A stretch of 61,365 nucleotides of DNA from Elusimicrobiota bacterium. Lineage in GTDB: Bacteria > Elusimicrobiota > Elusimicrobia > UBA1565. The notes beneath the pieces were generated by a model, which searched no databases, was not told the origin of the DNA, and was given only the letters and a program-made list of their open reading frames with translations. The position numbers and the translations under genes are program-made. Location of the stretch: the NCBI GenBank assembly GCA_043827405.1, contig JBDRPD010000093.1:1-61365 (forward strand), given 5' to 3'. This document shows, in pieces, positions 17,854-35,714 of this stretch (position 1 is its first letter; every line of letters begins with the position of its first letter).

Positions 17854-17861
17854 TATCCCGC

Positions 17862-20101: not shown

Positions 20102-20102
20102 A

Positions 20103-20834
20103 ATGAACGCCAAATTGGGAGTCAATATCGATCACATCGCGACGTTAAGGCAGGCGCGCCGGGCCGTCGACCCGGATCCGGTGGTGGCGGCGCGTGTGGC
20201 GCGTACGTCCGGCGCCGACATGATCGTCGCTCACCTGCGCCAGGACCGGCGGCATATCCAGGAAAAGGACCTTATTGCGCTGCGCAAGCTGTATAAGACG
20301 GGCCTGCATATGGAGCTGGCCAATGTCCCCGAGATGATCAAGGTGGGGCTTCAGATCAAGCCGGATACGATCTGCATCGTCCCTGAGAATCCGCGGGAAG
20401 TAACGACGGAGGGCGGGCTCAAGTTCTCCGGCGCGAGGTCCAAGGAGCTCGAAAAGACCATCCGCCGCTTGAAAAATGCCGGCATCGGCGTCGGCCTGTT
20501 CGTCGATCCGGATGCGATCAGCGTGCGGACGGCGCACAACCTGGGCGCCGACGCCGTCGAGCTGTGCACTTCCGCCTACGCGGAGACGATCGGCAAGCAC
20601 AAGCAGATCATGGAGCTGGAGCGCCTGGAGCTGGCGGCATACCTCGGGCATGAGCTGAAGCTGGAGCTGCATGCCGGGCACGGCCTGGACTACACGAATG
20701 TGGGGGCGGTCGCCGCGATTCCGCATATGCGCTACCTCAATATCGGCTTCTCGATCGTGGCGCGGGCGCTCTTTACCGGCCTTAAGCCCGCCGTCGCCGA
20801 GATGAAGAAGCTTATCGTCTCCGCGCGCGGTTAG
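20103..20834 (+). CDS. pdxJ: Pyridoxine 5'-phosphate synthase
   Basis: LGVNIDHIATLRQAR, HLRQDRRHI, TTEGGL, HAGHGL; AAGGAG SD before ATG 20103. Confidence 0.95.
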   Translation: MNAKLGVNIDHIATLRQARRAVDPDPVVAARVARTSGADMIVAHLRQDRRHIQEKDLIALRKLYKTGLHMELANVPEMIKVGLQIKPDTICIVPENPREVTTEGGLKFSGARSKELEKTIRRLKNAGIGVGLFVDPDAISVRTAHNLGADAVELCTSAYAETIGKHKQIMELERLELAAYLGHELKLELHAGHGLDYTNVGAVAAIPHMRYLNIGFSIVARALFTGLKPAVAEMKKLIVSARG

Positions 20835-20849
20835 CGGGAGTCCGCCGGC

Positions 20850-22715
20850 ATGTGCGGAATCATCGGCTATATCGGCCCGCGTGACGTAACTCCCGTGCTG
20901 ATGCACGGGCTGCGCCGCCTCGAGTATCGGGGCTATGATTCCGCCGGCATCTGCGTCGTCGACAATGAGAAATCGCTGCGCATCGTCCGCGCGGTGGGCA
21001 AGATCGCCGAGCTGCAGTTCCGCCTGCAGGGCAAGGAGCCGCGAGGGAGCGCCGGCATCGGGCACTCCCGGTGGGCCACCCACGGCGCGCCGTCGGAAGT
21101 GAACGCTCATCCGCACGCCGACTGCACCGGGCAGGTCGTTGTCATCCACAACGGGATCATCGAGAACTACCGGGAGCTGAAGGAAAAGCTCACCCGCGCC
21201 GGCCACCACTACGCCTCCGAGACGGATACCGAGATCCTGGCCCATCTCGTCGAAGACAAGCTCCGGAAGCTGCGGCGGCGGATCAAGGACAAGCAGCGCC
21301 GTTTCATTGAGGCGACGCGCAGCGCGCTGCGGGAAGTCGAGGGCGCGTACGCCATCGCGGCGATCTGGGCGGAGCTCCCGGATACGCTGATCGCGGCTAA
21401 AACCTCGTCACCGCTGGTCATCGGCCGCGGCAAGGGGGAGATGTTTCTTGCCTCCGATGTCCCCGCCTTTATGAAGTATTCTCGTGAGGCTTATTTTCTC
21501 GATGACGGTGAGATGGCGATTCTCGAGCGCGGCGGCGCGGAGATCCGCCGGCTTCGTTCAGGCCGCCGGCATACGCCGAAGTTTATAAAGATCGACTGGG
21601 ACCGGGGGCGGGCCGAGAAATCGGGCTTCAAGCACTTCATGCTTAAGGAGATCTACGAGCAGCCCCAGGCCGTTTCCGATACCATCCGGCAGCGCCTCTA
21701 TCCGGTGGGCGTCCGTTCGCTCAAGCGCGAGACCGGCATGTCGGCCGCCGCGATCAGGAAGATTGAACGGGTGCAGTTCCTCGCCTGCGGTACGGCGAAC
21801 CATGCGGGCATGATCGGCACCTATTTTATCGAGCACTTCGCCAAAATCCCGGCCGAGGCCGAGCTCGCTTCGGAGTTCCGCTATCGGGAGCCGGTGCTTG
21901 ACGAGCGGACCTTGGTCGTCGCGATCAGCCAGTCGGGAGAGACCGCCGATACGCTGGCCGCGGTACGGCTCGCCCGGCGCCGGGGCGCCAAGATATTATC
22001 GATCTGCAACTGCGTCGGCTCGGCGTTGACCCGCACCGCCGACTTTAATCTCCATACCCATTGCGGGCCGGAATACGGCGTGGCTTCGACCAAGGCCTTC
22101 GTCGGTCAGCTGACCGCGATCGCCATTCTGACGCTGCATTTGGGCATCGCCAAGCGCACCATGGACGATCAGCGCGGCCGCGCCCTGATCCGCGGGCTCC
22201 GGCATTTGCCGGAGATGATCCATAAAACCCTCAAGCTCGATCGGCAGATCCTCGCCCTCGCAAAGAAGCTCAAGAAGAAGAAGCAGTTCCTGTTTATCGG
22301 CCGCCACGTCGACTACCCGTTGGCGTTGGAGGGGGCGCTCAAGCTTAAGGAGATCTCCTACCTTCACGCCGAAGGCTACGCCGCCGGTGAGATGAAGCAT
22401 GGCCCCATCGCCCTCATCGACCAGGATATACCGGTGATCGCCATCGCCACCGAATCCCGCATCTTCGAAAAGACCTTCTCGAATATCGAGGAGGCCAAGG
22501 CCCGCGGAGCGATGGTGATCGCGATCGCCTCGGAAGGGGAGCGGCGCCTGCGGGGCAAAGCCGACTACGTGCTCTCCGTACCCAAGGTGGACGAGTACCT
22601 GAGCCCGTTGGTCAGCGCCGTGCCGCTGCAGCTGCTCGCCTACCACATATCAAACCAGCTGGGATTGGACGTGGACCAGCCCCGCAATCTCGCCAAAAGC
22701 GTGACGGTCGAATGA
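20850..22715 (+). CDS. glmS: Glutamine--fructose-6-phosphate aminotransferase
   Basis: MCGIIG, LEYRGYDSAG, GHSRWATHG, SQSGETADT, C-terminal PRNLAKSVTVE. Confidence 0.98.
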   Translation: MCGIIGYIGPRDVTPVLMHGLRRLEYRGYDSAGICVVDNEKSLRIVRAVGKIAELQFRLQGKEPRGSAGIGHSRWATHGAPSEVNAHPHADCTGQVVVIHNGIIENYRELKEKLTRAGHHYASETDTEILAHLVEDKLRKLRRRIKDKQRRFIEATRSALREVEGAYAIAAIWAELPDTLIAAKTSSPLVIGRGKGEMFLASDVPAFMKYSREAYFLDDGEMAILERGGAEIRRLRSGRRHTPKFIKIDWDRGRAEKSGFKHFMLKEIYEQPQAVSDTIRQRLYPVGVRSLKRETGMSAAAIRKIERVQFLACGTANHAGMIGTYFIEHFAKIPAEAELASEFRYREPVLDERTLVVAISQSGETADTLAAVRLARRRGAKILSICNCVGSALTRTADFNLHTHCGPEYGVASTKAFVGQLTAIAILTLHLGIAKRTMDDQRGRALIRGLRHLPEMIHKTLKLDRQILALAKKLKKKKQFLFIGRHVDYPLALEGALKLKEISYLHAEGYAAGEMKHGPIALIDQDIPVIAIATESRIFEKTFSNIEEAKARGAMVIAIASEGERRLRGKADYVLSVPKVDEYLSPLVSAVPLQLLAYHISNQLGLDVDQPRNLAKSVTVE

Positions 22716-23125
22716 GCGCCCGGACGCGCTTCCCGTCGCTCGGCATCGATATTGTTGAAATCGACCGGGTGGCGCAGCTGGCGAAGAACAGCAAGCGCTT
22801 CCTGACGCGGGTCTTCTCAAAGGATGAGATTCGCTACTGCCATGACAAGAAGAAGAAGTGGCAGCACTTCGCGGTGCGCTTCGCGGCCAAGGAGGCGATC
22901 TGGAAGGCCGTCGGCCAGGCCGGTCTGAACCTGAAGGATATCGCCATTCGCCGCGGCCCGAGCGGGCGGCCCAGCGTCGTCCTGGAGGGACGTGCCGCGC
23001 CTTTTATCCAGGTGTCTCTGACGCATACGGAAAAGTACGCCGCCGCGGTCGCGGTTTACATGCGGCATATGACTCTGCCCAATGCCCCGGCGCGAAAGCC
23101 GACGAAGAATAAGAAGCGGGCATGA
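22712..23125 (+). CDS. acpS: Holo-[acyl-carrier-protein] synthase
   Basis: GIDIVEIDR, RFAAKEA, GRP, VSLTH. Confidence 0.94.
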   Translation: MSARTRFPSLGIDIVEIDRVAQLAKNSKRFLTRVFSKDEIRYCHDKKKKWQHFAVRFAAKEAIWKAVGQAGLNLKDIAIRRGPSGRPSVVLEGRAAPFIQVSLTHTEKYAAAVAVYMRHMTLPNAPARKPTKNKKRA

Positions 23126-24027
23126 AGTTTTCGCTTAAGACGCTTAAGACATGGCTGCCGGCGCGCCGCCGTGAGGCGCATAAGGGCGATTTCGGCCGCC
23201 TGCTCATCGTCGCCGGGTCCCGGGGGATGAGCGGCGCCGCGATCCTGGCGGCGCGGGCGGCGCTCCGTGCGGGCTGCGGCTTGACCACCTTGGCGCTGCC
23301 CGAGAGCCAGCAGCCGATAGCGGCGGCGGCGGTGCCGGAGGCTATGACTTTGCCGCTGCCTGAAACCGCGGCCGGAACGCTGCGCCGCGACGCCGTCAGT
23401 TCGCTCATGAGCGCGCACGAGAAGCACAAGTTTACGGCGCTCGCTCTGGGGCCCGGGCTGACGACGCATACCGAAACGGCCCGTGCCGTTGTCGGTATTC
23501 TCGGTAGCCTCCACGTTCCTGCGGTGATCGACGCCGACGCTCTCAATATCCTCGCCATTGAATCGCGGGCGGAGGTGGAGAAGCTGTGCCATCGCCGCAC
23601 CGCGCCGTGCGTGCTGACCCCCCACCCGGGCGAGGCCGCGCGATTGCTGCGTGAGAAGTTCGGGAGCGGCGCCAAGGAGCGGGAAAGCGCGGCCCGCCGG
23701 CTGGTCGAGGAATGCGGCGGCGTCTGTCTGCTTAAGGGCCGCGACAGCGTGATCGCCGACGGCGAGCGTGTATGGATAAACCCCACCGGCAATCCGGGCT
23801 TGGCCAAGGGCGGCTCGGGCGATGTGCTGACCGGAGTGATCGCCGCAATTTGGGCCCAGCGGCTGCGCGTCGACGCGCGGGACCGGGGCTTTGAGGCCGC
23901 GGCTTTGGGCGCCTGGCTGCACGGCTTCGCCGCCGACTGTGCGGTCAGGGAAAAGACGACCCGCTGCCTGCTGTCCACCGATGTGATCGAAGCTCTGCCC
24001 CGCGCCTTCAAGAAGCTCGGGGCTTAG
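23122..24027 (+). CDS. nnrD: ADP-dependent NAD(P)H-hydrate dehydratase (YjeF C-terminal domain only)
   Basis: HKGDFG, GPGL, VIDADALN, LTPHPGE, LKG, GGSGDVLTG; no epimerase domain. Confidence 0.93.
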   Translation: MKFSLKTLKTWLPARRREAHKGDFGRLLIVAGSRGMSGAAILAARAALRAGCGLTTLALPESQQPIAAAAVPEAMTLPLPETAAGTLRRDAVSSLMSAHEKHKFTALALGPGLTTHTETARAVVGILGSLHVPAVIDADALNILAIESRAEVEKLCHRRTAPCVLTPHPGEAARLLREKFGSGAKERESAARRLVEECGGVCLLKGRDSVIADGERVWINPTGNPGLAKGGSGDVLTGVIAAIWAQRLRVDARDRGFEAAALGAWLHGFAADCAVREKTTRCLLSTDVIEALPRAFKKLGA

Positions 24028-25193
24028 AGGCTCTCCGCCAATACTTCGGCGATAACCCGGTTGCCTGCCGCTGAGTAGTGCTTCTGCGGAGTGAAAAGAG
24101 AATCCAGGGAAGTGCTTTCGGATCGGCGCAGCAGTTTTTCGGTAGGGTCAATGACATGGAAATCCTTCTTGAGCTTCTTCAGCAAGGCCGCATAGTCGAG
24201 CGGCTTTCCGCGGCGCGCGGCAGCTAATTGGTCCCGTCGCGGGATGTGGAGAATCCAAAACCGGGCGCCCGCTTCCTCCGCTTCACGCCGGAAGCTGTCG
24301 ATGATGCGCAGTGCGAGACGGGCGGGTTCGGTGTCGGGCGGGTAGAAATTTCGTCCCGCCTTTCGCGGGGTGCGGGTTTCCCTGGCGAGAGCGGTCAGAA
24401 AAAAGGCGGTGAGCCGGCTCTTGAGCCAGAAGCTGTCGGCGTAATCGGCGGGATCGTAGAACGCTTCATGGGCGGCCAACGGGGAATGTGGAAGCGTCGC
24501 TATCACCGCGGCCAGCTCGTGCGGAGAGGGCGTCGGCGAGTTAACCAGTTCTAGAGCGCCGTCTTTTAGGATGAAGCGGGGTTTTGACAAGTGGATGCTG
24601 GACCGGTAGTAGTAGAACCTGCGAAACATGTTCTGGCATCGTTTAATGTTCTCCGCCTGAAAGCCGAGGACGACGACTTTGGGAGAGATTTGATTCTTGA
24701 TCGATCGCCACCTCAGGTATGCCTGGTCGATCCCATACCCGGAGTAGCCGAGGTTCAAAACCCGGATACCGCTTCGGCTGCGTTCGAGGATGGCGGAGAA
24801 AGTGTCGTCGTATTGGACGTCGTCGCCGTGGACGTAGGAATCTCCAAAGACCGCGACGGTTATGCCGCTGGTGGAAATCCGCGGCGGGCTCAGCGGCGTT
24901 TTTGTCCGGATGCCCTGTGCGTCATAGGCATAAAACCCATACATGAACCGGCTCTCGGGCCGCGGGGACCAGCCGAGAAGGGGGTCGTATTGGGTGGTTA
25001 TGGTTATGTCGGTCGTCGAGAGCTTCTTCATGGCCGCCGCCGTCGATTTGACCGGCAGGCGATAGGGCCTGAGCTGGACGGAGCGGATGGAGAAATTGCC
25101 GTCGATGTCGGTGCCGCCGAAAAGACGCATTCCCGCCTCCAGGGCGAGGAGGCAGAGGAGCGAGGAGATCAGGACGAGGTGCCTTCTTTTCAT
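24024..25193 (-). CDS. Membrane-anchored SGNH/GDSL hydrolase-family protein
   Basis: N-terminal TM (LLCLLALEAGMR), YDPLLGW, VFGDSYVHG, NLGYSGYGIDQ, HYSAAGNRVIA; ATG at 25193 is 10 nt below TATAAT. Confidence 0.85.
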   Translation of the reverse strand: MKRRHLVLISSLLCLLALEAGMRLFGGTDIDGNFSIRSVQLRPYRLPVKSTAAAMKKLSTTDITITTQYDPLLGWSPRPESRFMYGFYAYDAQGIRTKTPLSPPRISTSGITVAVFGDSYVHGDDVQYDDTFSAILERSRSGIRVLNLGYSGYGIDQAYLRWRSIKNQISPKVVVLGFQAENIKRCQNMFRRFYYYRSSIHLSKPRFILKDGALELVNSPTPSPHELAAVIATLPHSPLAAHEAFYDPADYADSFWLKSRLTAFFLTALARETRTPRKAGRNFYPPDTEPARLALRIIDSFRREAEEAGARFWILHIPRRDQLAAARRGKPLDYAALLKKLKKDFHVIDPTEKLLRRSESTSLDSLFTPQKHYSAAGNRVIAEVLAESL

Positions 25194-25266
25194 GCGCCAT
25201 GGCATTATAGCGCTAATGCGATATTCATCAAGGCGCTGTTTAGGGCCGAAGTTGTAGAATTCCGCT

Positions 25267-27957
25267 ATGGGTGAGATCGCACCGTTGGCCGTCGCGGACT
25301 TCCGTCTGCGCGCCCTGTATCCCAATCTGCGCGACTTGTTCAACAGCTTCGGCGACAGGCGCGCGCGGGGAAAGAAGAAGAGCAAGGCGCTCGGCTACTT
25401 TCCGCCGATCGCCGAGTACCGTCTGCGTCACGACGCGCCGGGGCGTGACCGCGTGCTGGAACTGCGCGACGTCGATGTCCCGCTGCTGATGAACACTTCG
25501 CATGACCGCGGCAAGCGCTATATGTCGTGCCTGCTCGAGGCGCGCAAAGGAAATGCCGGCGCGCGCGCCGAGATTGATAATCTGGTCAACGAATTTTTCG
25601 CGACCCTGGAGCAGCGCTATTGGGGCGCCCCCGTCTTCGCCGACCGGCATGTCGTGCCCTCGATGTGCGAGGGGCCGTCCTCGACCGATATCGTCAGCCA
25701 CAAGGGTTCGATCCTGCTTAAGCTCAGCCGCCAGGGCTACCCGGTGCCGGACTTCGTGGTCCTAACCTCCAACGTCTATCTCGACCGCAAGAAGGACTTC
25801 GCGCGGCATACCTGCCGCGCGCTGTCGGATCTGGAACGGCTCACCGGGCAGCGCTTCGGCTCGTCTAATAATCCTATCGTCGTGGCTGTCCGCTGCGCGA
25901 TGCCGCGCTACTATCCGGGCCTGATGCCGACCTATTTGAACGCCGGCGTGATTGAGAGCACTCTGCCTCCCTTGTCGCGGCTGTTCGGCGAGAAGGCGGC
26001 GTGCCGGATGTATCTCAATAACCTGCGCAACCTCCTCGGGAGTTTTATCAGCGGCGAGGATTTTAAGACCGAGGCGGCGGTCTCGAGCGATCTGCCGCTG
26101 GAAGATCTGAAGGAGCTGGTCGCCAACTTTCGGGAGCGCGTCGCGCGTTTTGACCGGAGGCTGCTGGAGGACGCCGTCTACCAGGTGCAGTTTCTCGCCG
26201 ATCAGGCGTACCGGCAGTACGACGCCCACGCGGACCTGATCAGTACTTTGTCCCGGGGAGAGAAGCATTATCCCTCCTTGATCCTGCAGAAGATGGTATG
26301 CACGGTACGCGACGACGCCTCCTATGCCGGCGTGCTGATCAGCCGTGACGCGAAAAGCGGCAGCGGGCGTCACCTTGAGATCGGCCGCAATATTTTCGGC
26401 GAGGATATTATGACGGGGACCATCCCCACGCAGCAGATTCGCTACGGCTCTGCCGAGGAGATCAAGTCCTCCTTCCCCGCCGTCTATCATTTTTCGCCGG
26501 CGCTCGATGAGCTCGAGCGGGAGTTCGAGGGGCCGGTGACCGTTGAGTTCGCGGCGGAGGGAACGCGCGGGCATGAGCTCTTCGCTATGCTGCAGCTTAA
26601 CGATACGGGCATGACGGGGCAGGCCGCGTTTATCTCCACGGTGGATATGCACAAATCCGGGATCATATCGCGCAAACGCCTGACCCAGCTGATCCTTCCC
26701 TATCACATAAAGCAGCTGCAGGGCGACGCGATCGATGAGAGTTCCTTTGCGACGCTCGAGCGCTTCTCGCAAGGCGTCTCCATTTTGCCGCGCTCCGCCG
26801 TCTGCGCGCAAATTTACTTTTCGGCCGAGGCGGCGCTCGGCGCCAAGAAGCGCGGCGAACGGGTTTGCTTCTGCAAGAAGAGCTTTACTCCCGCCGATGC
26901 CGTGGTTATGCGCGAAGTCGACGCCATCGTCAGCCTTAATTCGGCGGCTATCCACGTGGTGGCCATCTGTCAGAGCTTCGGCACCCCGGCGCTGCTGAAT
27001 CTCGAGGCCGAGGGGGTGCGCCTGCTTCCCGCAGGGCGCTTGGTCAACGGGCAGGGGGTCGAGATCGAAGAGGGAGTCTGGGTTACGATCTCGTCACGCA
27101 GCCAGGCGCTGTTCCGCGGGAAGGCGCGGCTGAAGCCCGCGCGCTTTTCCCGCTACCTGCGGCGGGAAAAGGTGCCTCTGTCGGAAGAAGAGGAGGCTCT
27201 TTTTTCGCGGATGGCCTACGCCTACCGCTACTATCAGCAGCTGGTCCGGGGTCTGAAGCTGGATCAGGTCTCCAGCTTGAGCGAGCTTATTCGGCTGGTC
27301 AATTTGGAGATGCGGGGTGAGGCGGAGGAAGCCCGCGACTTCGTTCATGGCTGGTTCGACAGCCACGAGGCTTTCTATGTCGACGAAGTCCTGAAGAGCG
27401 AGATGGGGGACCATCTGAACCAGCATACGGTGTTCGATATGCTGACCCTCGACCGCAAGATCCGTTTTTACAAGCTTGCCCTGGAGCGCTGCGCGCGGGA
27501 GAAGATTTCCGGCTACGCCGCCGGTACCTTTATGCTCGGCCGGTTCCTGTCGCGGGCCAAACCGGTCGACTTCTGGAAATCGTTCGTCCCCGCCGAGGCG
27601 GCCTTGCTCGTCAATGAGTGGGTGCTGTTTGAAAAGTATATCCAGGTTCTCTACGACGTGGGAGAGCGGCAGGTCACGCGCGCGCGCCACAAGATCCTGA
27701 AAGAAGGGCTGGAGACGATGCGGCTCGCGGCGCATAACGTCGCCGTGCTCGTAACTTTGAAGCTGAGCCCGCTGGATCTGGCGGAGGTCCGCGGCGCGAT
27801 TCCCGAGTGGGCGGATCCGCAGACGTCGGAAGTTCTGCAAATACTGAGCGCCCCGTATAAAGAGCTGTTCGATTTTAGCCAGGAATGGTCCCGGCGCAAG
27901 CTGGAGGGCTTCTGCGCTGAGGCGAAAATCCCGGTTCCGGGACCCGAGGACCGTTAG
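25267..27957 (+). CDS. PPDK-like dikinase (ATP-grasp + phospho-His swivel domain, unrecognised C-terminal domain)
   Basis: SHKG...GYPVPDF, VAVRC...PGLMPTYLNAG, LQKMV, GEDIMTG, VEF...MLQ and AAIHVVAICQSFG align with PPDK N-terminal and central domains. No PEP-binding barrel motifs (e.g. SFGTNDL). Confidence 0.8.
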   Translation: MGEIAPLAVADFRLRALYPNLRDLFNSFGDRRARGKKKSKALGYFPPIAEYRLRHDAPGRDRVLELRDVDVPLLMNTSHDRGKRYMSCLLEARKGNAGARAEIDNLVNEFFATLEQRYWGAPVFADRHVVPSMCEGPSSTDIVSHKGSILLKLSRQGYPVPDFVVLTSNVYLDRKKDFARHTCRALSDLERLTGQRFGSSNNPIVVAVRCAMPRYYPGLMPTYLNAGVIESTLPPLSRLFGEKAACRMYLNNLRNLLGSFISGEDFKTEAAVSSDLPLEDLKELVANFRERVARFDRRLLEDAVYQVQFLADQAYRQYDAHADLISTLSRGEKHYPSLILQKMVCTVRDDASYAGVLISRDAKSGSGRHLEIGRNIFGEDIMTGTIPTQQIRYGSAEEIKSSFPAVYHFSPALDELEREFEGPVTVEFAAEGTRGHELFAMLQLNDTGMTGQAAFISTVDMHKSGIISRKRLTQLILPYHIKQLQGDAIDESSFATLERFSQGVSILPRSAVCAQIYFSAEAALGAKKRGERVCFCKKSFTPADAVVMREVDAIVSLNSAAIHVVAICQSFGTPALLNLEAEGVRLLPAGRLVNGQGVEIEEGVWVTISSRSQALFRGKARLKPARFSRYLRREKVPLSEEEEALFSRMAYAYRYYQQLVRGLKLDQVSSLSELIRLVNLEMRGEAEEARDFVHGWFDSHEAFYVDEVLKSEMGDHLNQHTVFDMLTLDRKIRFYKLALERCAREKISGYAAGTFMLGRFLSRAKPVDFWKSFVPAEAALLVNEWVLFEKYIQVLYDVGERQVTRARHKILKEGLETMRLAAHNVAVLVTLKLSPLDLAEVRGAIPEWADPQTSEVLQILSAPYKELFDFSQEWSRRKLEGFCAEAKIPVPGPEDR

Positions 27958-30413
27958 CCCCGCGCGGTTGTGGACGCCCCGACGCCGGCTTGTTCTTCCC
28001 GGCGCGCGACTCCGTAGAGCCGATCCCGGTCGATAACCGGTTCGGCGGCCTGCAGAATATCGGGCAGCTCCACCCCATCGCGCGCCGCGATCAGGCGGCC
28101 GAGCGCGAGCGAGACCGATAGAATCGCGTTCATTCCGAGGTTCGCCTTTACCTGCATGGCGGCGATCTTTTTCTCGTCGGAGGCATCGGCGGCGACCTTG
28201 CCTCGCTTTTGCGCCAGATCGAGTTCTAGGCGCAGCAGCTCCCGGTCGATATCGGCCAGGCCGCCCAGCTCGCTGAGTTTTTTCCCTAGGAAGCTCGGGG
28301 CGATGGTCTCTTCGGCGTTGGCGACCGCGTTGAGGCAGCCCTTGCCGCCGTAGCGTTTGGCGCGCATCCAGATGCCGGCCAGCTCGTCGTCGTTCTGCGC
28401 CGATATCGTCTCGGCGTCGACGTTGGCGGCGAAGCGGTAGGTTTTCTGCTTCTCATCGTAGGTGAACAGGCGGGGATATTTGCGGGTTTGCGGGCACTCC
28501 TCAATAATACTGTCGACCAAGTGCAGGGCCTCTTCGGTGCCCGCCGAGGTGCCCAGCGGGGTGGCGGCGGCGAACTTCATGCCGTTGTCGATCCGTATCA
28601 CGACGCCGACCGTGGGGATGCCGGCATTGGTGGGCTCCTCGTGGGCCGTGATATCGGCGATCATAAGATTCTCGTCGAGCCGGTGCTTGATCGTGGACCC
28701 TTTCTGCGCCAAGCCGATCAGCTCGACGATCCGGCCGTACTTTATGAGCCGCTCCGTATTGCTGCCGCCGCCGCATTTCAGACCCAGCGCGCCCACGGCG
28801 AAACCGATATCCGCCTCCATGACCTCGTTGGGGGATTTCGAGCGGTGGGAGACGACGAGGGCGAGGCCGTGCTCCTTGGCGGTGCGGGTCGCGAGCAGGG
28901 TCTCGCTGAGCGTGCCGATCTGGTTGGCTTTGATCAGGGCGGTGTTGATCAGCCCTTGCTCCGCGCAGCGGGCGATGGTCGAGTCTTTCGTCGTGACAAG
29001 GTCGTCGCCGATGATCAGGACTTCGCTGCCGAGCTCGCGCATCAGGGATTTCCAGCCCTCCTCATCGTCCTCGGCGAACGGGTCTTCCAGGGAAACGATC
29101 GGATACTCTTTGATCCAGCGCTTGTAGAGATCGACGAGGTCCTCGGTCGTCATGATTTTGGGGTCTTCGGCGCGCCAGAATAGATACTGGCCGATCGACT
29201 CCCGTTCCCCGGTCTGTTCGCGGTAGGCGATGCTCAGTTCGCTGGCCGCCGAGTCGAGCGCGAGCACGACGTCGCGGTCCGGGACGAAGCCGCACTGCTC
29301 GATTGCCTGGACCGCCACCTTGAGCGCGCGCTCCTCCGGAAGGATATCGTCCTCGCCGCGGGCATAGGAGGCGACGACGCCGCCCTCAAGGCCGATGCCG
29401 ACGAAATTGAGCCCCTCGGAGTCCTGGATGATCTGGATGACGCGGCTTTGCAGGGCATTGGTGACGCGCTGGGCTTCGATGTAGTCCTGGGCGGTCAGCG
29501 GTATGAACATCATCTCCTGGAAGCTGAGGTTGCCGCCCATCTCCTCGGTGTGGCGGCCGCCCATGATGGAGTTGCGGAACTCCCACGGCGCGAAAACGCG
29601 GCGCCCGTCGGGCAGCTCGACTTCCTGCAGCCGGTGCACTTCAAGCTTGCGCTTGAGCTCGGAGGGCTTGGTTTCGGTCCAGCGGTATTTTCCGGCCGGC
29701 TGGCCGGAGGCGTCGGCCGAGGCGGAGACTTTGGCCGCGGCGGCCTTGTCCCGCGCCTCTTTCTCCCGCGCCTGGAAGGCCCGGTATTTTCCGGGGTCGG
29801 CCAGCAGGAAGTCAAAGAGGGCGACGATGCCTATGGTCGCCAGAAGGCGTCCCGCGTAGACGCCCCATTCAAGCCCCGCGGGACGGCAGGACGCGATCAG
29901 GACCACGCCGGGCAGGAGCGTCGCCCAAGCGAGCGTTTTGCTCGCTGCGGGTCCGGCGGCGGAGACGGCCAGATTCTGCGACTTGACGCGGGGGTGGAAG
30001 TTCCCTGATTCTTTGGCGACGCCGGGGAAGGCGCCGTAGGGAATAGTGCAGAACATCTTTAGATACCACAGCCAGCGCGCGGCGGTTCCGCCCGCGAGGC
30101 GCTCGTTCGCGGGGCCGAGGAGGTCCGGCCGGAGATTGTTGGTGCGGACGGCGGCGAGGTAGTGGCCCATTTCGTGGAGCGCGATATTGGCGTGCCAGGC
30201 GGCGTACCACATTACGGTTGAAAGGAGCAGTTCGATGCTGAAGAACATCTCGCGCAGCACGTCGGTCCGGGAGGCGATATGCTCGGAGATGCTGATCAGC
30301 GAGGTGAGAAACGCCGCGTGGAATGAAACGAGCTTGTGGTTGGCGATGATCCAGCCGCGGTCGAGGCGGCTGTGCGGCGTGTTTTTAGGCAGCGAAAAAG
30401 GTGGAAATCTCAT
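27954..30413 (-). CDS. M50-like membrane domain fused to circularly permuted enolase
   Basis: HEMGH and VSAAGP in hydrophobic N-terminus; enolase barrel motifs (GGRH, FQE, EGG, LALDSAASE, EDP, GDDL, IKANQIG, SHRS) precede the enolase N-terminal-domain motifs (GIPTV, PLGTSAG, RYGGKG, LGMNAILSVS). Confidence 0.88.
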   Translation of the reverse strand: MRFPPFSLPKNTPHSRLDRGWIIANHKLVSFHAAFLTSLISISEHIASRTDVLREMFFSIELLLSTVMWYAAWHANIALHEMGHYLAAVRTNNLRPDLLGPANERLAGGTAARWLWYLKMFCTIPYGAFPGVAKESGNFHPRVKSQNLAVSAAGPAASKTLAWATLLPGVVLIASCRPAGLEWGVYAGRLLATIGIVALFDFLLADPGKYRAFQAREKEARDKAAAAKVSASADASGQPAGKYRWTETKPSELKRKLEVHRLQEVELPDGRRVFAPWEFRNSIMGGRHTEEMGGNLSFQEMMFIPLTAQDYIEAQRVTNALQSRVIQIIQDSEGLNFVGIGLEGGVVASYARGEDDILPEERALKVAVQAIEQCGFVPDRDVVLALDSAASELSIAYREQTGERESIGQYLFWRAEDPKIMTTEDLVDLYKRWIKEYPIVSLEDPFAEDDEEGWKSLMRELGSEVLIIGDDLVTTKDSTIARCAEQGLINTALIKANQIGTLSETLLATRTAKEHGLALVVSHRSKSPNEVMEADIGFAVGALGLKCGGGSNTERLIKYGRIVELIGLAQKGSTIKHRLDENLMIADITAHEEPTNAGIPTVGVVIRIDNGMKFAAATPLGTSAGTEEALHLVDSIIEECPQTRKYPRLFTYDEKQKTYRFAANVDAETISAQNDDELAGIWMRAKRYGGKGCLNAVANAEETIAPSFLGKKLSELGGLADIDRELLRLELDLAQKRGKVAADASDEKKIAAMQVKANLGMNAILSVSLALGRLIAARDGVELPDILQAAEPVIDRDRLYGVARREEQAGVGASTTARG

Positions 30414-30420
30414 GTCTAGA

Positions 30421-30463
30421 ATCGTAGCAGAAAGGCGGGGGGGGGCAATAGGGCCGCTGGGCG
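30421..30463 (-). promoter_or_regulatory. Leaderless-type promoter with C9 tract and GGGCC motif
   Basis: TTGCCC(30443-30448)-16bp-TACGAT(30421-30426, preceded by TGc), 7 nt before ATG; G9 run 30437-30445; gggcc-gct-gggcg at 30451-30463. Confidence 0.55.
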
Positions 30464-30507
30464 CAGAAAATCCCCAGGCGCAATAATAAGATAAAATCGC
30501 GGCTTCT

Positions 30508-32037
30508 ATGAATCCGATCCGATGCGTGTTCTGGGCGGCGGCGTTCGCTCTCGGCGTGCAGGTTCCGGCCGTGCACGCCGCCGCTGCGAAAAGCGATGTG
30601 GCCCGGCGCATCGAGTCCCGCATCCAATCGGGACAGAATGTGTTCTTTGTCGCGCCGTTGGAGGGCGCGGTCTACCCCGCCAGGTTTTCTCCGCCGACGT
30701 TTAGCTGGGAGGTTTTCGCCGACGCGTTGGGCAAGGAGCGCGGCGCCGGGCTCGGCTCCTGGCGCTTGACCATCTCCGAAGAAGGGAAGGTCCTGCACGA
30801 GGAGTCGATCTCCGGGCCTCCGCGATGGACTCCGCCGCGCAAGCTGTGGGAAATCTGGACAGGAAAGAAGCTGGAAGCGGAGGTGGGCAATGAGGTGAAC
30901 CGCGCCATCCCCGTTCACTTCGGTATTGATCATCAGCCCCTTCCCGACGACGCGCTGTTTCGGTATATCGGGCTGGCCGAAGGCGCTGCGCGGCCCTATC
31001 AGCCGCCGCAGAGTTTGGTGTGGATGGATCCTGTCGCGAGCAAGTGCGAGGATGTCATCCGGATGGGCAGCCGTTGGCCGTTCCGCTGCGCCGGCTGTCA
31101 TGCGACGCACTCCCCGTCGGGTCTTTGGTCTTTCGTCGACTACCGTTTCGACAGGAAGCGCTCCTATCGCCGCAGCGTCGAGATCGCCGGGGCCGACGAT
31201 TCCGGACGGCCCGTAACGAGAATCCTGGACCCGGCCGGCGAGCTGGGCGGCCTGCGCTATTCCTTTTCCGGGGAGAAAAGCGCGCTCTTTATGTACCGGC
31301 CGCGGGGCACGGCGCCCGAGCCGTATCCCAAGGCTTACACCTTCATTAAGCCGCGGGGATACAAGCTGCATGCGGAGGCCTTCAATAAGCGCTATGTGTC
31401 GCCCTTCTGGGATATCGTGATCGCGGACCGTGCGACCGGGGAACTGGTCCCTCTTAAGGGCGCCGCCGACGCCGCTGCCGTCGAGACCTTTCCGAGTTGG
31501 TCCGCGGACGATAAGCGGGTGGCTTTCGTGCGCAATGAAGGGATGGGAAAGATGGATATCTACACGGTTGAATACAACGGCGGCAAGGGCGGGCAAGCGC
31601 AGCCTTTGGCCGGGGCCAGCGGCAACGGCAGCGACAACTATTTCCCGGAGTTCTCACCCGATGGGCGCTGGCTCGCATTTACCCGGGGGAACGCTTCCGG
31701 CGGACCGTTCGCCCGCGACAGCAGCGATATCTATATCGTTCCGGCCGCCGGGGGGCGGGCCCGCCGCCTGGAGTCGAATGTCGAGGGCGTCATGGACTCC
31801 TGGCACAGCTGGTCGAGCGACAGCCGCTGGCTTCTCTACAGCTCGAAGCGTGACGGGCTGGCTACTCGGGCCTATATTACGAGGATAGACGAGCGGGGCG
31901 GCGCCTCGGCTCCGGTGGAGCTTGGCTGCGAGCAAGGGGTGAACGCCCGGGTCAATATGCCCCAGTGGATAAAGAAGGGGCGTCCGCCTGCGTTCTCAGA
32001 CGACGAACTGGACGAACTGCAGCGCCGGAATCCGTGA
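30508..32037 (+). CDS. Secreted TolB-like (PD40 beta-propeller) protein with CxxCH motif
   Basis: Signal peptide; CAGCH; PD40-type repeats FPSWSADDK, FPEFSPDGRW, HSWSSDSRW. Confidence 0.82.
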   Translation: MNPIRCVFWAAAFALGVQVPAVHAAAAKSDVARRIESRIQSGQNVFFVAPLEGAVYPARFSPPTFSWEVFADALGKERGAGLGSWRLTISEEGKVLHEESISGPPRWTPPRKLWEIWTGKKLEAEVGNEVNRAIPVHFGIDHQPLPDDALFRYIGLAEGAARPYQPPQSLVWMDPVASKCEDVIRMGSRWPFRCAGCHATHSPSGLWSFVDYRFDRKRSYRRSVEIAGADDSGRPVTRILDPAGELGGLRYSFSGEKSALFMYRPRGTAPEPYPKAYTFIKPRGYKLHAEAFNKRYVSPFWDIVIADRATGELVPLKGAADAAAVETFPSWSADDKRVAFVRNEGMGKMDIYTVEYNGGKGGQAQPLAGASGNGSDNYFPEFSPDGRWLAFTRGNASGGPFARDSSDIYIVPAAGGRARRLESNVEGVMDSWHSWSSDSRWLLYSSKRDGLATRAYITRIDERGGASAPVELGCEQGVNARVNMPQWIKKGRPPAFSDDELDELQRRNP

Positions 32038-32472: not shown

Positions 32473-32895
32473 GTGAACATCCTGTCCCGGAACGAGGAGC
32501 AGACGCTGGCGTTCGCGGCCAAGCTGGCAAAGGCAGTGAAGCCGGGCGTCATCTGCCTCAGCGGACCGCTGGGCGCGGGTAAGACGACGTTTGTGCGCGG
32601 CTTTCTGCGCGGCCTCGGCTACCGGGGCGCCGTGCGCAGCCCGACTTTCGCCCTGGTCCATGAATACCCGCGGGTAAAGCCGCGCGTTTATCACCTCGAC
32701 CTCTACCGCATCGAGGATTCCGGCGAGCTCGACGGCATGGGGCTTGAGGACTGCCTCTCGGACGTCGGCGCCGTCAGCCTCATCGAGTGGCCGGAGATCG
32801 CCGCCGGCCGCTTGCCCGCCCGGCGCGTGGATATCTCCTTCGCGCACGCGCGCGGCGGCGGCCGCTCCCTGCGGCTGCGCCGGAGGCGGCGGTGA
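32473..32895 (+). CDS. tsaE: tRNA threonylcarbamoyladenosine biosynthesis ATPase TsaE
   Basis: LSGPLGAGKTTFVRG, SPTFALVHEY, HLDLYR, IEWP. Confidence 0.96.
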   Translation: MNILSRNEEQTLAFAAKLAKAVKPGVICLSGPLGAGKTTFVRGFLRGLGYRGAVRSPTFALVHEYPRVKPRVYHLDLYRIEDSGELDGMGLEDCLSDVGAVSLIEWPEIAAGRLPARRVDISFAHARGGGRSLRLRRRRR

Positions 32896-33524
32896 ATATC
32901 CTCGCGATCGACACCTGCGGCGAAGGGCTGTCGCTGGCGGTCGGAGGAGCCGGGCGCCGCTGCCGGCAGCGGCGGCTGCGGACCCGAAAGGCCGATGAGC
33001 GGATATTCCCGACGCTGCGGGTCCTGCTCAAGGGAGCGGGTCTGGGGCTGCGGGACCTCGACGCGGTCGTCGCGGCGAACGGGCCGGGCCGCTTTACCGG
33101 CATCCGCATCGGCATGACGTTCGCCAGGATGCTGGGGGACTCTCTGGGCGTGCCCGTCGCGGCTGTGAGCCGCTTCGCGGCGCTGGCCGCCGCGGAAAAA
33201 AAGCCGGTCCGCCGCTGCCTCGTGCTGCCGGCCGGGCGCGGCGACATCTACCTGCAGGTTTTTACGCCGGGGCGGGATGGGCGCCCGCAGCCCGCCGGCG
33301 CGCCGCGCTGGCATGCGCAGGCCGAGGGCGAAGCGGAGCTCGCGCGGCTGACGAAAGCGGACGGCGTTCTCGTCACGCGCTACGAGTTCGACCGCGGCGG
33401 GCCGTTGTTCCCGGCGTCGCTGCTGCTCAAGGCGGCGCGGGAGAAACTCGCGGCCGGCGCGGCCGGCGCTTTTCGCCCGCTGTATCTGCGGCTGGCCAAC
33501 TACGAGCTAAAGCGCGGGCGCTGA
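32892..33524 (+). CDS. tsaB: tRNA threonylcarbamoyladenosine biosynthesis protein TsaB
   Basis: GTG at 32892 (GTGA overlap), ILAIDT, GPGRFTGIRIG, C-terminal PLYLR. Confidence 0.9.
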   Translation: MNILAIDTCGEGLSLAVGGAGRRCRQRRLRTRKADERIFPTLRVLLKGAGLGLRDLDAVVAANGPGRFTGIRIGMTFARMLGDSLGVPVAAVSRFAALAAAEKKPVRRCLVLPAGRGDIYLQVFTPGRDGRPQPAGAPRWHAQAEGEAELARLTKADGVLVTRYEFDRGGPLFPASLLLKAAREKLAAGAAGAFRPLYLRLANYELKRGR

Positions 33525-33545
33525 AATATTATAATGACGGCGCCT

Positions 33546-35714
33546 ATGATCCCTTCGGCTCTGCGCCGCTTCCTCTTTTCCGCGCTGCTGATTCCGGCGT
33601 TGGCGCTTTCCGCCGCGGCGGTGCAGAAAGCGGCCTATAACCATTATTTGAAGGCGCTGCTGCTTTCCAATCAAGGGAACTCCGGCGAGGCGCTTAAAGA
33701 GTATGAGGCCGCCCTGAAGCTGGACTCGGGCTCCGCTTTCATGTATGAGCAGGCGGCCGAGCTGGCTCTGGAAATGGGCCAGAGCGACCGCGCTATGGAG
33801 TACGCGCAGCGGCTGGTTGAGCTTTCGCCGCAGGACGGCAAGGCGTTTTTCCTGCTGGGCAACGTGCATTGGGCGCGCGGCGAACTGGAACCGGCGCAGG
33901 CCGCTTTCGAGAAGACGCTCGAGCTGCAGCCGGATTATGCGCACGCGCTCTATACTCTGGGCAACCTGCTGAGCTCGCAGTCGCCGGAGCTGGCCAAGCG
34001 CTACCTGCAGGACTACGTGGCGCAAAATCCGGACAACGCCTCCGATGCGGAATTTCAGATCGCCGTCATCGAGCAGCGGGCGGGCCGGGAAGACGGCGCG
34101 GTCGAGCATCTGCGTTCCGCCATCGAGCTGGATCAGGAAAATATGCACGCGTACTACGCGCTGGCCCAGATCTACGAGGTGCGGCGCGATACCGTCGCCG
34201 CGCTGGCGGTCTACGAGGAGATACTTGAGCGCGATCCCGGCAATGCGGCGCTGCTCAACCACGTCGGGGAGATCCACTACCTGGTCGAAGATATCGAGGC
34301 GGCGCGCGGTCTTTTCCAGCGCGCCAAGGACCTGCAGCCGGCGAACCCGACGACCTGTTTGTGGCTGGCGCTGCTGGCAGAGCAGCAGGATGACTATAAG
34401 GCCGCGGCGGAGCATATTCGAGCCAGCTCCGCCCTCGATCAGGAGGCGTCGCTCAACCTGCGGCTAAGCTACTACCTGACGCAGGCCGATGACCTGAAGA
34501 GCGCCGTTGCCGTTCTGGAGAACGCCCATAAAAGCTGGCCGCGGAACGAGGAGATTTCCTATTTTCTGGCGCTCGGCTACGACGACTTAAAGCTGCCGCG
34601 CCGCGCTATCGAGCTGATGAAAGAGGTGCTCGCGCTCCGGGCGGATCACCGCGACGCGCGGTTCCAGCTGGGAGCGCTCTATGAGAAGACCGGGGACATC
34701 GCCAATACGGAAATTCAGTTCCGCGAGATTCTGCGCGCGCATCCGGACGACGACTCGGCGCTGAATTTTCTCGGCTATACGCTGGCGGATCGGAATATGA
34801 AGCTCGACGATGCGGAAGCGATGATCGCGCGGGCGGTGGAGCTCAATCCCCGGAACGGAGCTTATATCGATTCGCTCGGCTGGGTGCACTACCGGCGCGG
34901 GCGCCTTGAAGAAGCGCTGCGCGAGCTGCGCCGCGCCGCGACCATGCTGCCCGCGGACGACGCCGTCTGGGCGCATCTGGGAGAAGTGCTGGACAAGCGG
35001 GGGCTCCGGCGGGAATCGTGGCAGGCGTGGAAGCGGAGCCAGCTCTACGCGCCGCAGAAAGCGCAGTACGAGGTGGCGGTCGCCAAGCTCGAGAAGACGC
35101 TCGCGCCGGAAGAGCTGGGCGCGTACTATCAGGAGTTTTTAGGCCGGATGCTGGAGGCTTTGACGTCGTACGGCGGGCCGTGCGCGATTCGGGGTGAAGT
35201 CGCGGGAAAGAAGTTCACGCTGCAGGGGATCGTTCACTATAAAGCGCCGTGGGACTTGACCGTCGATGTTCTGGGACCGATGTTTGTTCCCGTGCTGGGA
35301 ATCGCCGTCCGCGGCGAGGACGGCTTTGAGATGGACCCGCTTGATCTTGAGGGCGTGCGGCAGGAACTGCTGCGTGAAAAGATTTACGGCGCGGTCATGC
35401 TGCTTCGGGATTTCTTCGCCGGAGGGATATTCCGCTCCGAGCCCGCGGTTTTTAAACGGGGCTGGCGGCGCTCCCGACTGGTCACGCCGGCGGGCACGCT
35501 GCACCTCAACAAGTCCCGCACGCGGATCGCTTCCATTCAGGCGCCGGACCAGCGGAACCTGCGGCTGTATTTGTCGGGCTATCAGCGCGTGCAGGGACGC
35601 TGGCTGCCGGCGCACTTCAAGATCATGGGAAAGGGCTTCGTGTTGGAATTTGGGCTGCAGAATCCCAATGCGGTGTTTGAGCCCGCGTCGGCCGCGCCAA
35701 CGCGGGCCGACTGA
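33546..35714 (+). CDS. Secreted tetratricopeptide-repeat protein with C-terminal LolB-like beta domain
   Basis: Signal peptide, many TPRs including ALNFLGYTLAD and AYIDSLGWVHY; beta-rich ~200 aa tail (LTVDVLGPMFVPV...WLPAHF). Confidence 0.85.
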   Translation: MIPSALRRFLFSALLIPALALSAAAVQKAAYNHYLKALLLSNQGNSGEALKEYEAALKLDSGSAFMYEQAAELALEMGQSDRAMEYAQRLVELSPQDGKAFFLLGNVHWARGELEPAQAAFEKTLELQPDYAHALYTLGNLLSSQSPELAKRYLQDYVAQNPDNASDAEFQIAVIEQRAGREDGAVEHLRSAIELDQENMHAYYALAQIYEVRRDTVAALAVYEEILERDPGNAALLNHVGEIHYLVEDIEAARGLFQRAKDLQPANPTTCLWLALLAEQQDDYKAAAEHIRASSALDQEASLNLRLSYYLTQADDLKSAVAVLENAHKSWPRNEEISYFLALGYDDLKLPRRAIELMKEVLALRADHRDARFQLGALYEKTGDIANTEIQFREILRAHPDDDSALNFLGYTLADRNMKLDDAEAMIARAVELNPRNGAYIDSLGWVHYRRGRLEEALRELRRAATMLPADDAVWAHLGEVLDKRGLRRESWQAWKRSQLYAPQKAQYEVAVAKLEKTLAPEELGAYYQEFLGRMLEALTSYGGPCAIRGEVAGKKFTLQGIVHYKAPWDLTVDVLGPMFVPVLGIAVRGEDGFEMDPLDLEGVRQELLREKIYGAVMLLRDFFAGGIFRSEPAVFKRGWRRSRLVTPAGTLHLNKSRTRIASIQAPDQRNLRLYLSGYQRVQGRWLPAHFKIMGKGFVLEFGLQNPNAVFEPASAAPTRAD

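Follow-up and report, generated by a model that had tools for sequence, protein, structure and literature searches.

We found that a single gene in the window, the 61,365-nucleotide stretch of Elusimicrobiota DNA that we analyzed, encodes a site-2-protease (M50)-like membrane domain followed by a circularly permuted enolase. We confirmed the order of the three parts, M50-like membrane domain, enolase TIM barrel, and enolase cap. The earlier note had proposed this order, and Pfam, which places Enolase_C before Enolase_N, agrees with BLASTP and phmmer in supporting it. The gene lies on the minus strand at 27954..30413 and encodes 819 amino acids plus a stop codon. The open reading frame (ORF) is longer (27954..30623, minus strand, 889 amino acids), and the ATG at 30413 yields the 819-residue protein. 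The database gene call (P0003) and the homologues agree on this start, which leaves a gap of 94 nt to a divergent gene at 30508. Pfam and BLASTP match positions below follow the 889-residue ORF, and residue and motif positions follow the 819-residue protein. We checked the coordinates by translation, and those of HEMGH, AAGP, DFLLADPG, the barrel and cap boundaries, and the cap insert were all correct.

The permuted enolase

We found the enolase barrel at residues 262 to 572 (28698..29630, minus strand), where conservation, sequence searches, and structure comparison all place it. Pfam Enolase_C matched positions 346 to 634 (E value, 3.2e-54; 184.7 bits; gathering cutoff, 21.5). In BLASTP against the genome's own canonical enolase, positions 346 to 635 aligned to enolase residues 148 to 408 with 34% identity (E value, 4e-44). 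The top Foldseek matches of the barrel were all solved enolases, PDB entries 2fym and 5ohg among them, over about 300 columns with rmsd values of 2.0 to 2.4.

The cap follows at residues 584 to 790 (28044..28664, minus strand). Enolase_N matched C-terminal to Enolase_C in two stretches, the best at 755 to 853 (E value, 5.3e-14; 53 bits; cutoff, 35). BLASTP aligned positions 655 to 704 to residues 4 to 53 of the canonical enolase (E value, 8e-5), and phmmer against PDB sequences aligned positions 823 to 847 of the same ORF to residues 101 to 125 of 9no2_A. With the barrel at 346 to 634 and the cap at 655 to 853, the order departs from the canonical one, in which the cap comes first. Between the aligned blocks, an 11-residue permutation linker (residues 573 to 583; 28665..28697, minus strand) joins the old C terminus to the old N terminus, with pLDDT values of 84 to 98. 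The cap also carries an insert, put at about 50 residues by the earlier note and found here to be 52 (residues 635 to 686; 28356..28511, minus strand). This insert has no counterpart in the alignment with canonical enolase and is partly conserved within the family.

The catalytic residues were said to be retained, and we found that the catalytic, Mg-binding, and substrate-binding residues all align to those of the genome's own enolase. H288, E300, E343, D387, E443, D470, K495, H523/R524/S525, K546, and S623 (in the PLGTSAGT motif of the cap) were invariant in 53 sequences. We take the aligned residues to be the contacts to 2-phosphoglycerate (2-PG)/PEP or to the two Mg ions in canonical enolase. 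All enolase motifs were kept in 29 of 30 divergent members. Beside the active site, the family also has invariant changes of its own: GLEGG for GDEGG, SHRSKSP for SHRSGET, LKxGGGxNTERL, PLGTSAGT, and an extended loop following D387.

The protein scored 237.1 bits against TIGR01060 (eno), below the equivalog cutoff of 300, largely because the permutation splits the match into three stretches. The canonical enolase of the same genome is encoded on another contig and scored 598.1 bits. Because the genome also has this canonical eno gene, the permuted enolase probably has an additional function. The permuted enolase resembles canonical enolase (EC 4.2.1.11) in having both Pfam domains above their cutoffs, a barrel that superposes, and an invariant active site. 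In contrast to canonical enolase, it has its barrel before its cap, the linker, and the cap insert; it is fused to a membrane domain, scores below the TIGR01060 cutoff, and falls in a separate clade.

In a tree of 30 permuted and 44 canonical barrels, a single branch (SH-aLRT, 99) separated the two sets. We concluded that the permuted enolases have one origin. The end branches of the permuted barrels were shorter than those of the canonical enolases. These shorter branches point to selection on catalysis and, together with the retention of every catalytic residue, argue against a pure sensor. Across phyla, both the enolase and the protease-type active sites are under purifying selection.

The membrane domain

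We assigned residues 1 to 235 (29709..30413, minus strand) to a site-2-protease-like membrane domain on the basis of Pfam, an AF2 model, structure alignment, Atlas, and hydropathy. Peptidase_M50 (PF02163) matched positions 147 to 297 with an E value of 2.2e-5 and a score of 24.4 bits, below the cutoff of 27.2; in the search of the genome, the protein scored 26.3 bits against the same cutoff. A precomputed PF02163 match was present in 29 of the 120 best of 942 homologues. In Atlas, PF02163 was assigned to 25 of the 30 named clusters nearest to the membrane domain. hhalign of the domain against an M50 protein of the same genome gave only an E value of 0.012.

The AF2 model of the domain (pLDDT, 89.7) has four long helices, a β-hairpin, and a cytoplasmic amphipathic helix. 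When we compared the model with 48,161 chains in VIA-align, RseP (7w6z_A) ranked first (Z, 7.2; 125 residues; rmsd, 4.8) and the Methanocaldococcus jannaschii site-2 protease mjS2P (3b4r_B) ranked third (Z, 6.7; 106 residues; rmsd, 3.6), these Z scores being within the range that the tool describes as common for helical bundles. Chain 9j83_A ranked 23rd (Z, 5.1). Foldseek of the domain against the PDB gave no match at an E value of ≤0.001, and phmmer against PDB sequences gave nothing at an E value of ≤10.

The M50-type motifs named in the earlier note, HExxH, AGP, and an Asp motif, were verified by translation. HEMGH (30162..30176, minus strand) holds H80, E81, and H84, the putative zinc ligands and catalytic Glu, and lies within a helix at residues 60 to 90 of the model. 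H80 and E81 were invariant in 60 sequences, and H84 was at least 90% conserved; HExGH was kept in 28 of 30 divergent members. AAGP (residues 152 to 155; 29949..29960, minus strand) opens the third long helix, and its A152 and P155 were invariant in the family alignments. DFLLADPG (D201 to G208; 29790..29813, minus strand) may supply the third metal ligand or ligands; D201 and D206 were at least 90% conserved and lie where the last membrane helix (residues 182 to 205) reaches the cytoplasm. The hairpin glycines G127 and G131 were also invariant. Hydropathy, positive-inside counts, and the topology of the model indicate that both the motifs and the enolase face the cytoplasm.

Like the site-2 proteases (S2Ps) RseP, SpoIVFB, and M. 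jannaschii S2P, the domain has, in this order, HExxH in a membrane helix, a β-hairpin, an xAGP helix, and a helix with conserved Asp at its cytoplasmic end. RseP and mjS2P are its best structural matches, and Pfam and Atlas indicate M50. Unlike these proteases, it has only a minimal core, about 235 residues long, and it scores below the Pfam cutoff. The usual S2P Asp motif is NxxPxxxxDG, whereas the motif here is LDFxxADPG. In other S2Ps the regulatory domain is of the PDZ or CBS type, whereas the soluble partner domain here is a complete enzyme. Overall, the evidence that this is an S2P domain is moderate.

A variable tether rich in Ala, Ser, and Gly (residues 236 to 261; 29631..29708, minus strand) links the membrane domain to the barrel. 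It is 20 to 30 residues long and unconserved across the family, with pLDDT values of 54 to 59 at residues 231 to 250. This variability and low model confidence argue against tight allosteric coupling between the two domains. In addition, one member of the family (P0157) keeps the enolase site and has lost HExxH, AAGP, and both Asp residues, an observation that counts against activity of both domains.

The dikinase partner and the family

We found that the gene next to the permuted enolase encodes a pyruvate phosphate dikinase (PPDK)-like protein of 896 amino acids (25267..27957, plus strand). The two genes are convergent, and their stop codons overlap. The earlier note overlooked this truncated partner, which is the most informative part of the context. 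TIGR01828 matched it with an E value of 1.2e-36 over profile positions 14 to 517 of 865, a stretch that covers the ATP-grasp and runs through the swivel. The Pfam PEP-utilizers family gave only an E value of 0.24. PF02896, the PEP/pyruvate TIM barrel, had no match in the partner, and its matches in the genome were on three other contigs only. The putative swivel phosphohistidine, His563 (codon at 26953..26955, plus strand), was invariant in 46 family members.

In the place of the PEP barrel of PPDK, the partner has a conserved C-terminal domain of 264 residues (residues 633 to 896; 27163..27954, plus strand) with many invariant columns. No Pfam family matched this domain, Atlas returned its own family alone plus a weak Rph_4th lead at 0.80, and comparisons by HMMs and hhalign with the giant or fused forms described below revealed nothing equivalent to it. 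The partner is thus like PPDK and PEP synthase in its ATP-grasp and swivel with an invariant His. Rifampicin phosphotransferase and glucan-water dikinase are dikinases without a PEP barrel, and in this the partner is like them. It differs from known dikinases in that its C-terminal domain is outside known families and in that adjacency or fusion links it to a permuted enolase; we know of no other dikinase with such a link.

We found 942 homologues of the permuted enolase protein at an E value of ≤1e-3, hundreds of them independently assembled with the same architecture. A scan of genome contigs for the single protein with narrow patterns gave 4 relatives. The carriers are uncultivated bacteria of soil, sediment, and groundwater from several phyla, and their proteins have so far been annotated only as "hypothetical" or "enolase."

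In all 9 carrier genomes that we checked, one contig carried both the dikinase and the permuted enolase, and none of 5 relatives without the permuted-enolase gene yielded a dikinase orthologue. Among close metagenome loci, the dikinase adjoined the gene in 36 of 52, mostly in convergent orientation with a median gap of 85 nt. At more distant stand-alone loci, there was no dikinase neighbor within about 4.5 to 7 kb in 28 of 28. We also found a large sister family, here called the fused family, whose proteins of about 2,050 residues combine a permuted enolase with a related dikinase module; of the 120 best longer homologues, 111 have such a module in the same chain. In 35 members of the fused family, the M50 and enolase motifs were at least 97% conserved, and the swivel His was also kept. 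hhalign of the partner against the PPDK_N region of the fused family gave a probability of 95.9. The ATP-grasp region alone was common to the two in hhalign, and the fused modules are nearer to the genome's canonical PPDK than to the partner. This suggests that the two enzymes may have become partners on more than one occasion, or loosely. In tblastn (1e-4), this genome showed no homologue of the additional modules in the giant fused proteins.

In the neighborhoods of relatives, we found no conserved third gene beyond the dikinase. Nor did we find a conserved candidate protease substrate near the loci examined, an observation that counts against a working protease coupled to the enolase.

Possible roles

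The earlier note had offered two roles, a membrane-tethered enolase or an intramembrane protease that senses 2-PG/PEP, and either may hold. That both active sites are conserved is in keeping with two working domains, the membrane domain being more than a mere tether. We tentatively favor, from sequence, a two-enzyme membrane protein with both domains active, the enolase acting as the cytoplasmic part that couples the protease to metabolites. According to this model, the enolase would interconvert 2-PG and PEP at the inner membrane face, in the place that a soluble regulatory domain occupies in other S2Ps. Its ligand or catalytic state would couple lower-glycolytic status to the cleavage of a membrane substrate. 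The truncated dikinase, with its ATP-grasp and phosphohistidine swivel, would be an accessory in this lineage and would probably exchange phosphate with the 2-PG/PEP pool at the enolase site. The absence of a dikinase neighbor at the distant stand-alone loci suggests that the M50-like/enolase fusion is self-sufficient.

Somewhat less probable in our view, though still a serious candidate, is a membrane-tethered metabolic module, in which an active enolase and the dikinase carry out a two-step phosphotransfer and the S2P-like domain is mainly an anchor. For instance, the enolase site could bind PEP or 2-PG and so make up for the PEP barrel that the dikinase lacks; alternatively, a hydroxy acid could be phosphorylated by the dikinase and then dehydrated by the enolase. 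The fully conserved catalytic set, the flexible tether, the lack of a PEP-binding barrel in the partner, and the swivel His kept in both partner and fused forms are in its favor, as is the association of the two genes in carriers, close loci, and longer homologues. However, an anchor leaves the invariant HExGH, AAGP, Asp residues, and hairpin glycines unexplained. The 28 distant loci with no dikinase nearby also argue against this module, as does the limited similarity between the fused modules and the partner. Because the two genes are convergent, they are not cotranscribed, which again counts against it.

It seems unlikely that the enolase-fold domain has shifted in substrate and applies enolase-type chemistry, within another pathway, to a 2-phospho-3-hydroxy acid or to an analogue linked to a lipid or protein. 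The invariant family-specific changes beside the active site, the longer loop after D387 included, the cap insert, and the low TIGR01060 score would fit such a shift. Against it, the computed alignment shows that every residue that we take to contact 2-PG/PEP or Mg is kept. Slightly more doubtful still is a self-contained membrane machine in which PEP bound or formed in the permuted-enolase site is the phosphoryl partner of the dikinase swivel His; the enolase barrel would then replace the lost PEP barrel, and the reaction would gate an intramembrane zinc protease.

That an assembly or gene-calling artefact united unrelated genes is excluded for practical purposes: we found no support for it, and it is refuted by homologues from independent assemblies (942 in total, the best 120 of which, drawn from many assemblies, are 780 to 861 residues long and have a coverage of 96% or more, and 491 relatives on metagenome contigs), by the order Enolase_C before Enolase_N, seen in all 22 long representatives in which both domains occur, and by a single 12,843-nt Logan contig that covers the entire gene (27000 to 31000, with 7 differences). 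This contig is from run X1, which may be the source sample, and Logan pieces of a second study (X2) bridge the junction of membrane domain and barrel. Two metatranscriptome runs belonging to the study of X1 yielded no pieces of the locus, a result that carries no information on expression.

Canonical enolase is itself recruited, noncovalently, to membrane-bound RNase E in the Escherichia coli RNA degradosome. The protein described here is similar in that an enolase is at the inner membrane face beside another enzyme. It differs in that the link is a covalent fusion, the enolase is a permuted paralogue, and the neighboring domain is protease-like. Enolase is, to our knowledge, among the most conserved enzymes known. 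The earlier note did not recognize the architecture as characterized, and our search of literature titles and abstracts likewise turned up neither a naturally permuted enolase nor an enolase fused to a domain like that of an intramembrane protease.

With its present annotation, this family will be counted wrongly as ordinary glycolysis in automated metabolic reconstructions. The truncated dikinase suggests a hitherto undescribed phosphoryl acceptor. Should both domains prove active, the enolase would represent a new type of S2P accessory domain and could directly tie central carbon metabolism to membrane proteolysis. A PEP-gated machine, if true, would connect lower-glycolytic flux and energy charge directly, through covalent wiring, with regulated intramembrane proteolysis.

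Domain order and predicted fold

The gene occupies a minus-strand open reading frame (ORF) of 889 aa at 27954..30623. The ATG at 30413, which is the start in the database gene call (P0003) and in homologues, gives a protein of 819 aa, and an AT-richer gap of 94 nt separates it from a divergent PD40-repeat gene at 30508. In the numbering of the 889-aa ORF, Pfam placed Enolase_C at 346-634 (E, 3.2e-54) and, C-terminal to it, Enolase_N at 755-853 (E, 5.3e-14); a Peptidase_M50 match at 147-297 (E, 2.2e-5) scored 24.4 bits against a cut-off of 27.2. BLASTP against the genome's own enolase aligned ORF residues 346-635 with canonical residues 148-408 and 655-704 with 4-53, and phmmer against PDB sequences aligned 823-847 with enolase residues 101-125. 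These alignments match in swapped order, so the protein is permuted, with the barrel first and the cap last. This is the order that an earlier note had proposed; all of its motif and boundary coordinates agreed with the translation, and its cap insert of about 50 aa measures 52 aa. An 11-residue linker connects the barrel to the cap at the site of the canonical enolase's free ends, and the permutation cut coincides with a natural domain boundary.

The same genome does have a canonical eno elsewhere, a point raised in the earlier note: it lies on contig C62 (TIGR01060, 598 bits). A canonical enolase was also found 0.3 to 4 kb from the permuted one in four loci of different subgroups (L015, 10695-12026; L016, 14518-15891; L092, 9687-10979; and L095, 5200-6480).

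We modeled the protein with AlphaFold2 from a 53-sequence alignment (mean pLDDT, 90.5; pTM, 0.87). The sole internal weak stretch, residues 231-250 of the 819-aa protein (pLDDT, 54 to 59), is an unconserved, flexible Ala/Ser/Gly-rich tether. Using Foldseek, we found that the barrel matched solved enolases over ~300 columns (rmsd, 2.0 to 2.4) and that the membrane domain had no PDB match. Modeled alone (pLDDT, 89.7), the membrane domain has a helix at 16-40, a helix at 60-90 that carries HExGH close to its end, both a helical and a beta-hairpin in the interval 91-147, a helix at 148-179 that opens with AAGP, a helix at 182-205 that carries D201, and an amphipathic helix at 209-233. In site-2 proteases (S2Ps), the motifs are on the cytoplasmic side. 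Because the Lys+Arg counts place loops 91-147 (7 residues) and 206-262 (14 residues) inside, with none in the outside loop 178-183, the protease-type motifs and the enolase are predicted to be cytoplasmic, as in S2Ps.

In a VIA-align search of 48,161 chains, an RseP orthologue ranked first (7w6z_A; Z, 7.2; 125 residues) and the Methanocaldococcus jannaschii S2P third (3b4r_B; Z, 6.7; rmsd, 3.6; 106 residues), Z values that are common for helical bundles; Aquifex RseP ranked 23rd. In a language-model search, 25 of the 30 named clusters closest to the domain carried PF02163 (scores, 0.90 to 0.91). When aligned by hhalign with the same genome's 211-aa M50 protein, the membrane domain paired HExxH with HExxH and AAGP with LAGP, at an E of only 0.012. 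We therefore call the domain S2P-like, short of a proven M50 member. The genome also encodes an RseP-type S2P (a 442-aa open frame) and three more large frames with Peptidase_M50 matches, of 1,113, 1,155, and 680 aa (C3:33364-36705, C30:5689-9155, and C50:196728-198770; L111-L113), one of which also matches subtilase S8.

Conservation and spread of the family

By word-indexed search, we recovered 942 proteins at an E of ≤1e-3. The best 120 of these, drawn from many assemblies, measure 780 to 861 aa and align with at least 96% of the query at 70 to 78% identity. Their only names are "hypothetical protein" (in MAGs with a Terriglobales or Acidobacteriia label) and "enolase"; the source annotations of family members use only these two descriptions. 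When 50%-identity representatives were searched exhaustively, about 45 more distant members (34 to 67% identity) came to light, with Planctomycetota, Candidatus Eiseniibacteriota, and Omnitrophota among the named sources, and a scan of metagenome contigs gave 491 relatives. Pfam found both enolase domains in 22 of 25 longer members, with Enolase_C before Enolase_N in all 22. We built a maximum-likelihood tree from barrel sequences only, with 30 permuted and 44 canonical rows. One branch (SH-aLRT, 99) sets apart all the permuted forms, which is consistent with one origin. A full-text literature search, judged from its result listings, returned no published account of a circularly permuted, membrane-bound, or S2P- or PPDK (pyruvate phosphate dikinase)-fused enolase.

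Misassembly, which the earlier note had asked about, is excluded by the architecture shared across many assemblies together with sequence from other records. In run X1, which may be the source sample, one Logan contig (12,843 nt) covers 27000-31000, and with it the whole gene, with 7 differences. Sequence pieces from a second study account for most of this interval, the junction of membrane domain and barrel included.

Many distant members sit inside proteins of 1,371 to 6,041 aa. In these giants (P0126-P0141 and P0160-P0163), the S2P-like and permuted-enolase module is mid-protein, and on its flanks lie at least four extra modules that recur in positions that vary between proteins. A ~230-aa module gave weak HD-domain matches in two of the giants (E, 0.0018 and 0.0028), and one relative bears the JGI name "enolase/HD superfamily phosphodiesterase."

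Conservation extends to both active sites. Of 30 divergent members, 28 have HExGH, and AAGP, IPxGxFxG, and LDFxxADPG are conserved too; in a 60-sequence membrane-domain alignment, H80 and E81 are invariant and conservation of H84, D201, and D206 is 90% or higher. The enolase motifs (GRHTE, QE, GLEGG, LDxAxSE, SxEDxFxEDD, IGDD, KANQIGT, SHRSKSP, LKxGGGxNTERL, and PLGTSAGTxEA) were found in 29 of the 30. Twelve residues (H288, E300, E343, D387, E443, D470, K495, H523, R524, S525, K546, and S623) are invariant in the 53-sequence alignment. Aligned to canonical enolase, they are the equivalents of the catalytic set that the earlier note had listed as retained, in yeast numbering. One member, P0157, keeps the enolase site, but its protease-type motifs are gone (HExxH, AAGP, and both Asp residues). 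Another, P0173, is missing nearly all of the enolase catalytic residues along with the Glu of HExxH; with its degenerate enolase, it looks like a pseudo-enzyme version.

Among 301 sampled genomes of the window's own phylum, the full-length form occurs only in this genome and in G180; the other matches listed are barrels of canonical enolases of ~430 aa. It occurs in 5 of 121 sampled genomes from the order of a Terriglobales-labelled MAG. Because occurrence is patchy and identity across groups is 72 to 78%, these data suggest an accessory gene that spreads horizontally. The MAG G301 carries two copies on different contigs (L016 and L018), 72 to 73% identical to the window's.

The dikinase-like partner and the surroundings

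The convergent gene at 25267-27957 (+) encodes 896 aa. Its TAG (27955-27957) overlaps the TAA of the enolase gene (27954-27956, minus strand), and the same 4-nt ORF overlap recurs in a same-family relative (L004). The partner matches TIGR01828 (PPDK) over profile positions 14-517 of 865 (E, 1.2e-36), that is, the ATP-grasp and swivel regions. Pfam found no PEP-utilizers_C barrel in it, and the genome's three PF02896 proteins are all on other contigs. Its family (~890 aa, 50 to 54% identity) has an invariant His563 and, at the C terminus, a 264-aa domain that is well conserved and belongs to no known family.

We found a partner orthologue on the same contig in all nine carrier genomes examined (G000, the window's own, and G180, G301-G303, G323, G339, G362, and G374), convergent and within 300 nt in seven. 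In five relatives without the permuted enolase, we found no orthologue; they gave only matches of 24 to 25% identity in 934- to 973-aa frames, or none. In two MAGs, the NCBI locus tags are consecutive (ACE14M_00545/00550 and VEV41_19740/19735). The dikinase is the sole recurrent neighbor across 80 metagenome loci. Of the 52 loci in the 68 to 78% identity group, 36 have it, 34 of them on the opposite strand (median gap, 85 nt), and most of the loci without it stop less than 3 kb downstream (exceptions, L033 and L042).

A search for longer proteins gave 302 at an E of ≤1e-50. Among the best 120 of these, 111 (~2,010 to 2,355 aa) have PPDK_N and/or the PEP-utilizers swivel behind the permuted enolase; in 35 of the fused proteins, conservation of the S2P motifs, the enolase motifs, and the swivel His is 97% or higher. 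The fused dikinase modules are nearer to this genome's canonical PPDK than to the partner, with which they share only the ATP-grasp region (hhalign probability, 95.9). An HMM search found no dikinase neighbor in 28 loci of the 58 to 60% and 45 to 49% identity groups, which have stand-alone forms of 824 to 996 aa; 104 of the 134 neighboring ORFs at these loci were scanned with Pfam, and none had PPDK_N or PEP-utilizers. G301 has only one dikinase, next to one of the two copies. The dikinase-less loci, the PPDK-like fused modules, and this two-copy MAG are evidence against an obligate enolase-dikinase pair. As judged from gene neighborhoods, the dikinase link is specific to a subfamily.

Housekeeping genes surround the pair (16036-24027 and 32473-35714), namely, those for FtsH, dihydropteroate synthase, a phosphoglucosamine-mutase-like protein, GlmS, NAD(P)HX dehydratase, TsaE, a TsaB-like protein, and a TPR protein, and we saw no sign of a mobile element in these stretches. 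Upstream of the dikinase gene are two overlapping long ORFs, both candidate genes: 24024-25385 (-), with a weak GDSL-lipase match (E, 9.4e-6, below cut-off), and 24591-25274 (+), with no family match. Elsewhere, neighbors are subgroup specific: an M48 peptidase with a zinc ribbon downstream (L086, L089, and L093), PAS-domain histidine kinases upstream (L064, L067, and L068), and a Na+/H+ exchanger downstream (L069, L071, and L016), followed in L069 and L071 by a universal stress protein. These may reflect shared contig ancestry and no functional tie.

Possible roles of the two domains

We infer from residue conservation that both domains are catalytically active. Tentatively, we prefer a reading in which an S2P-type protease would carry the enolase as an accessory domain, cytoplasmic and coupled to metabolites. 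The invariant HExGH, Asp residues, and hairpin glycines, and the 28 dikinase-less loci, favor a protease domain that works and requires only the enolase. Possible, and only slightly less probable, is that enolase and dikinase form a phosphotransfer module tethered to the membrane, with the S2P-like part serving chiefly as an anchor; the tether, the complete catalytic set, and P0157 favor catalysis as the core. That the enolase fold has instead shifted to another substrate is improbable beside a catalytic set that aligns throughout with that of canonical enolase. The two leading readings, coupling of the enolase to a protease and phosphotransfer with the dikinase, are compatible with each other.
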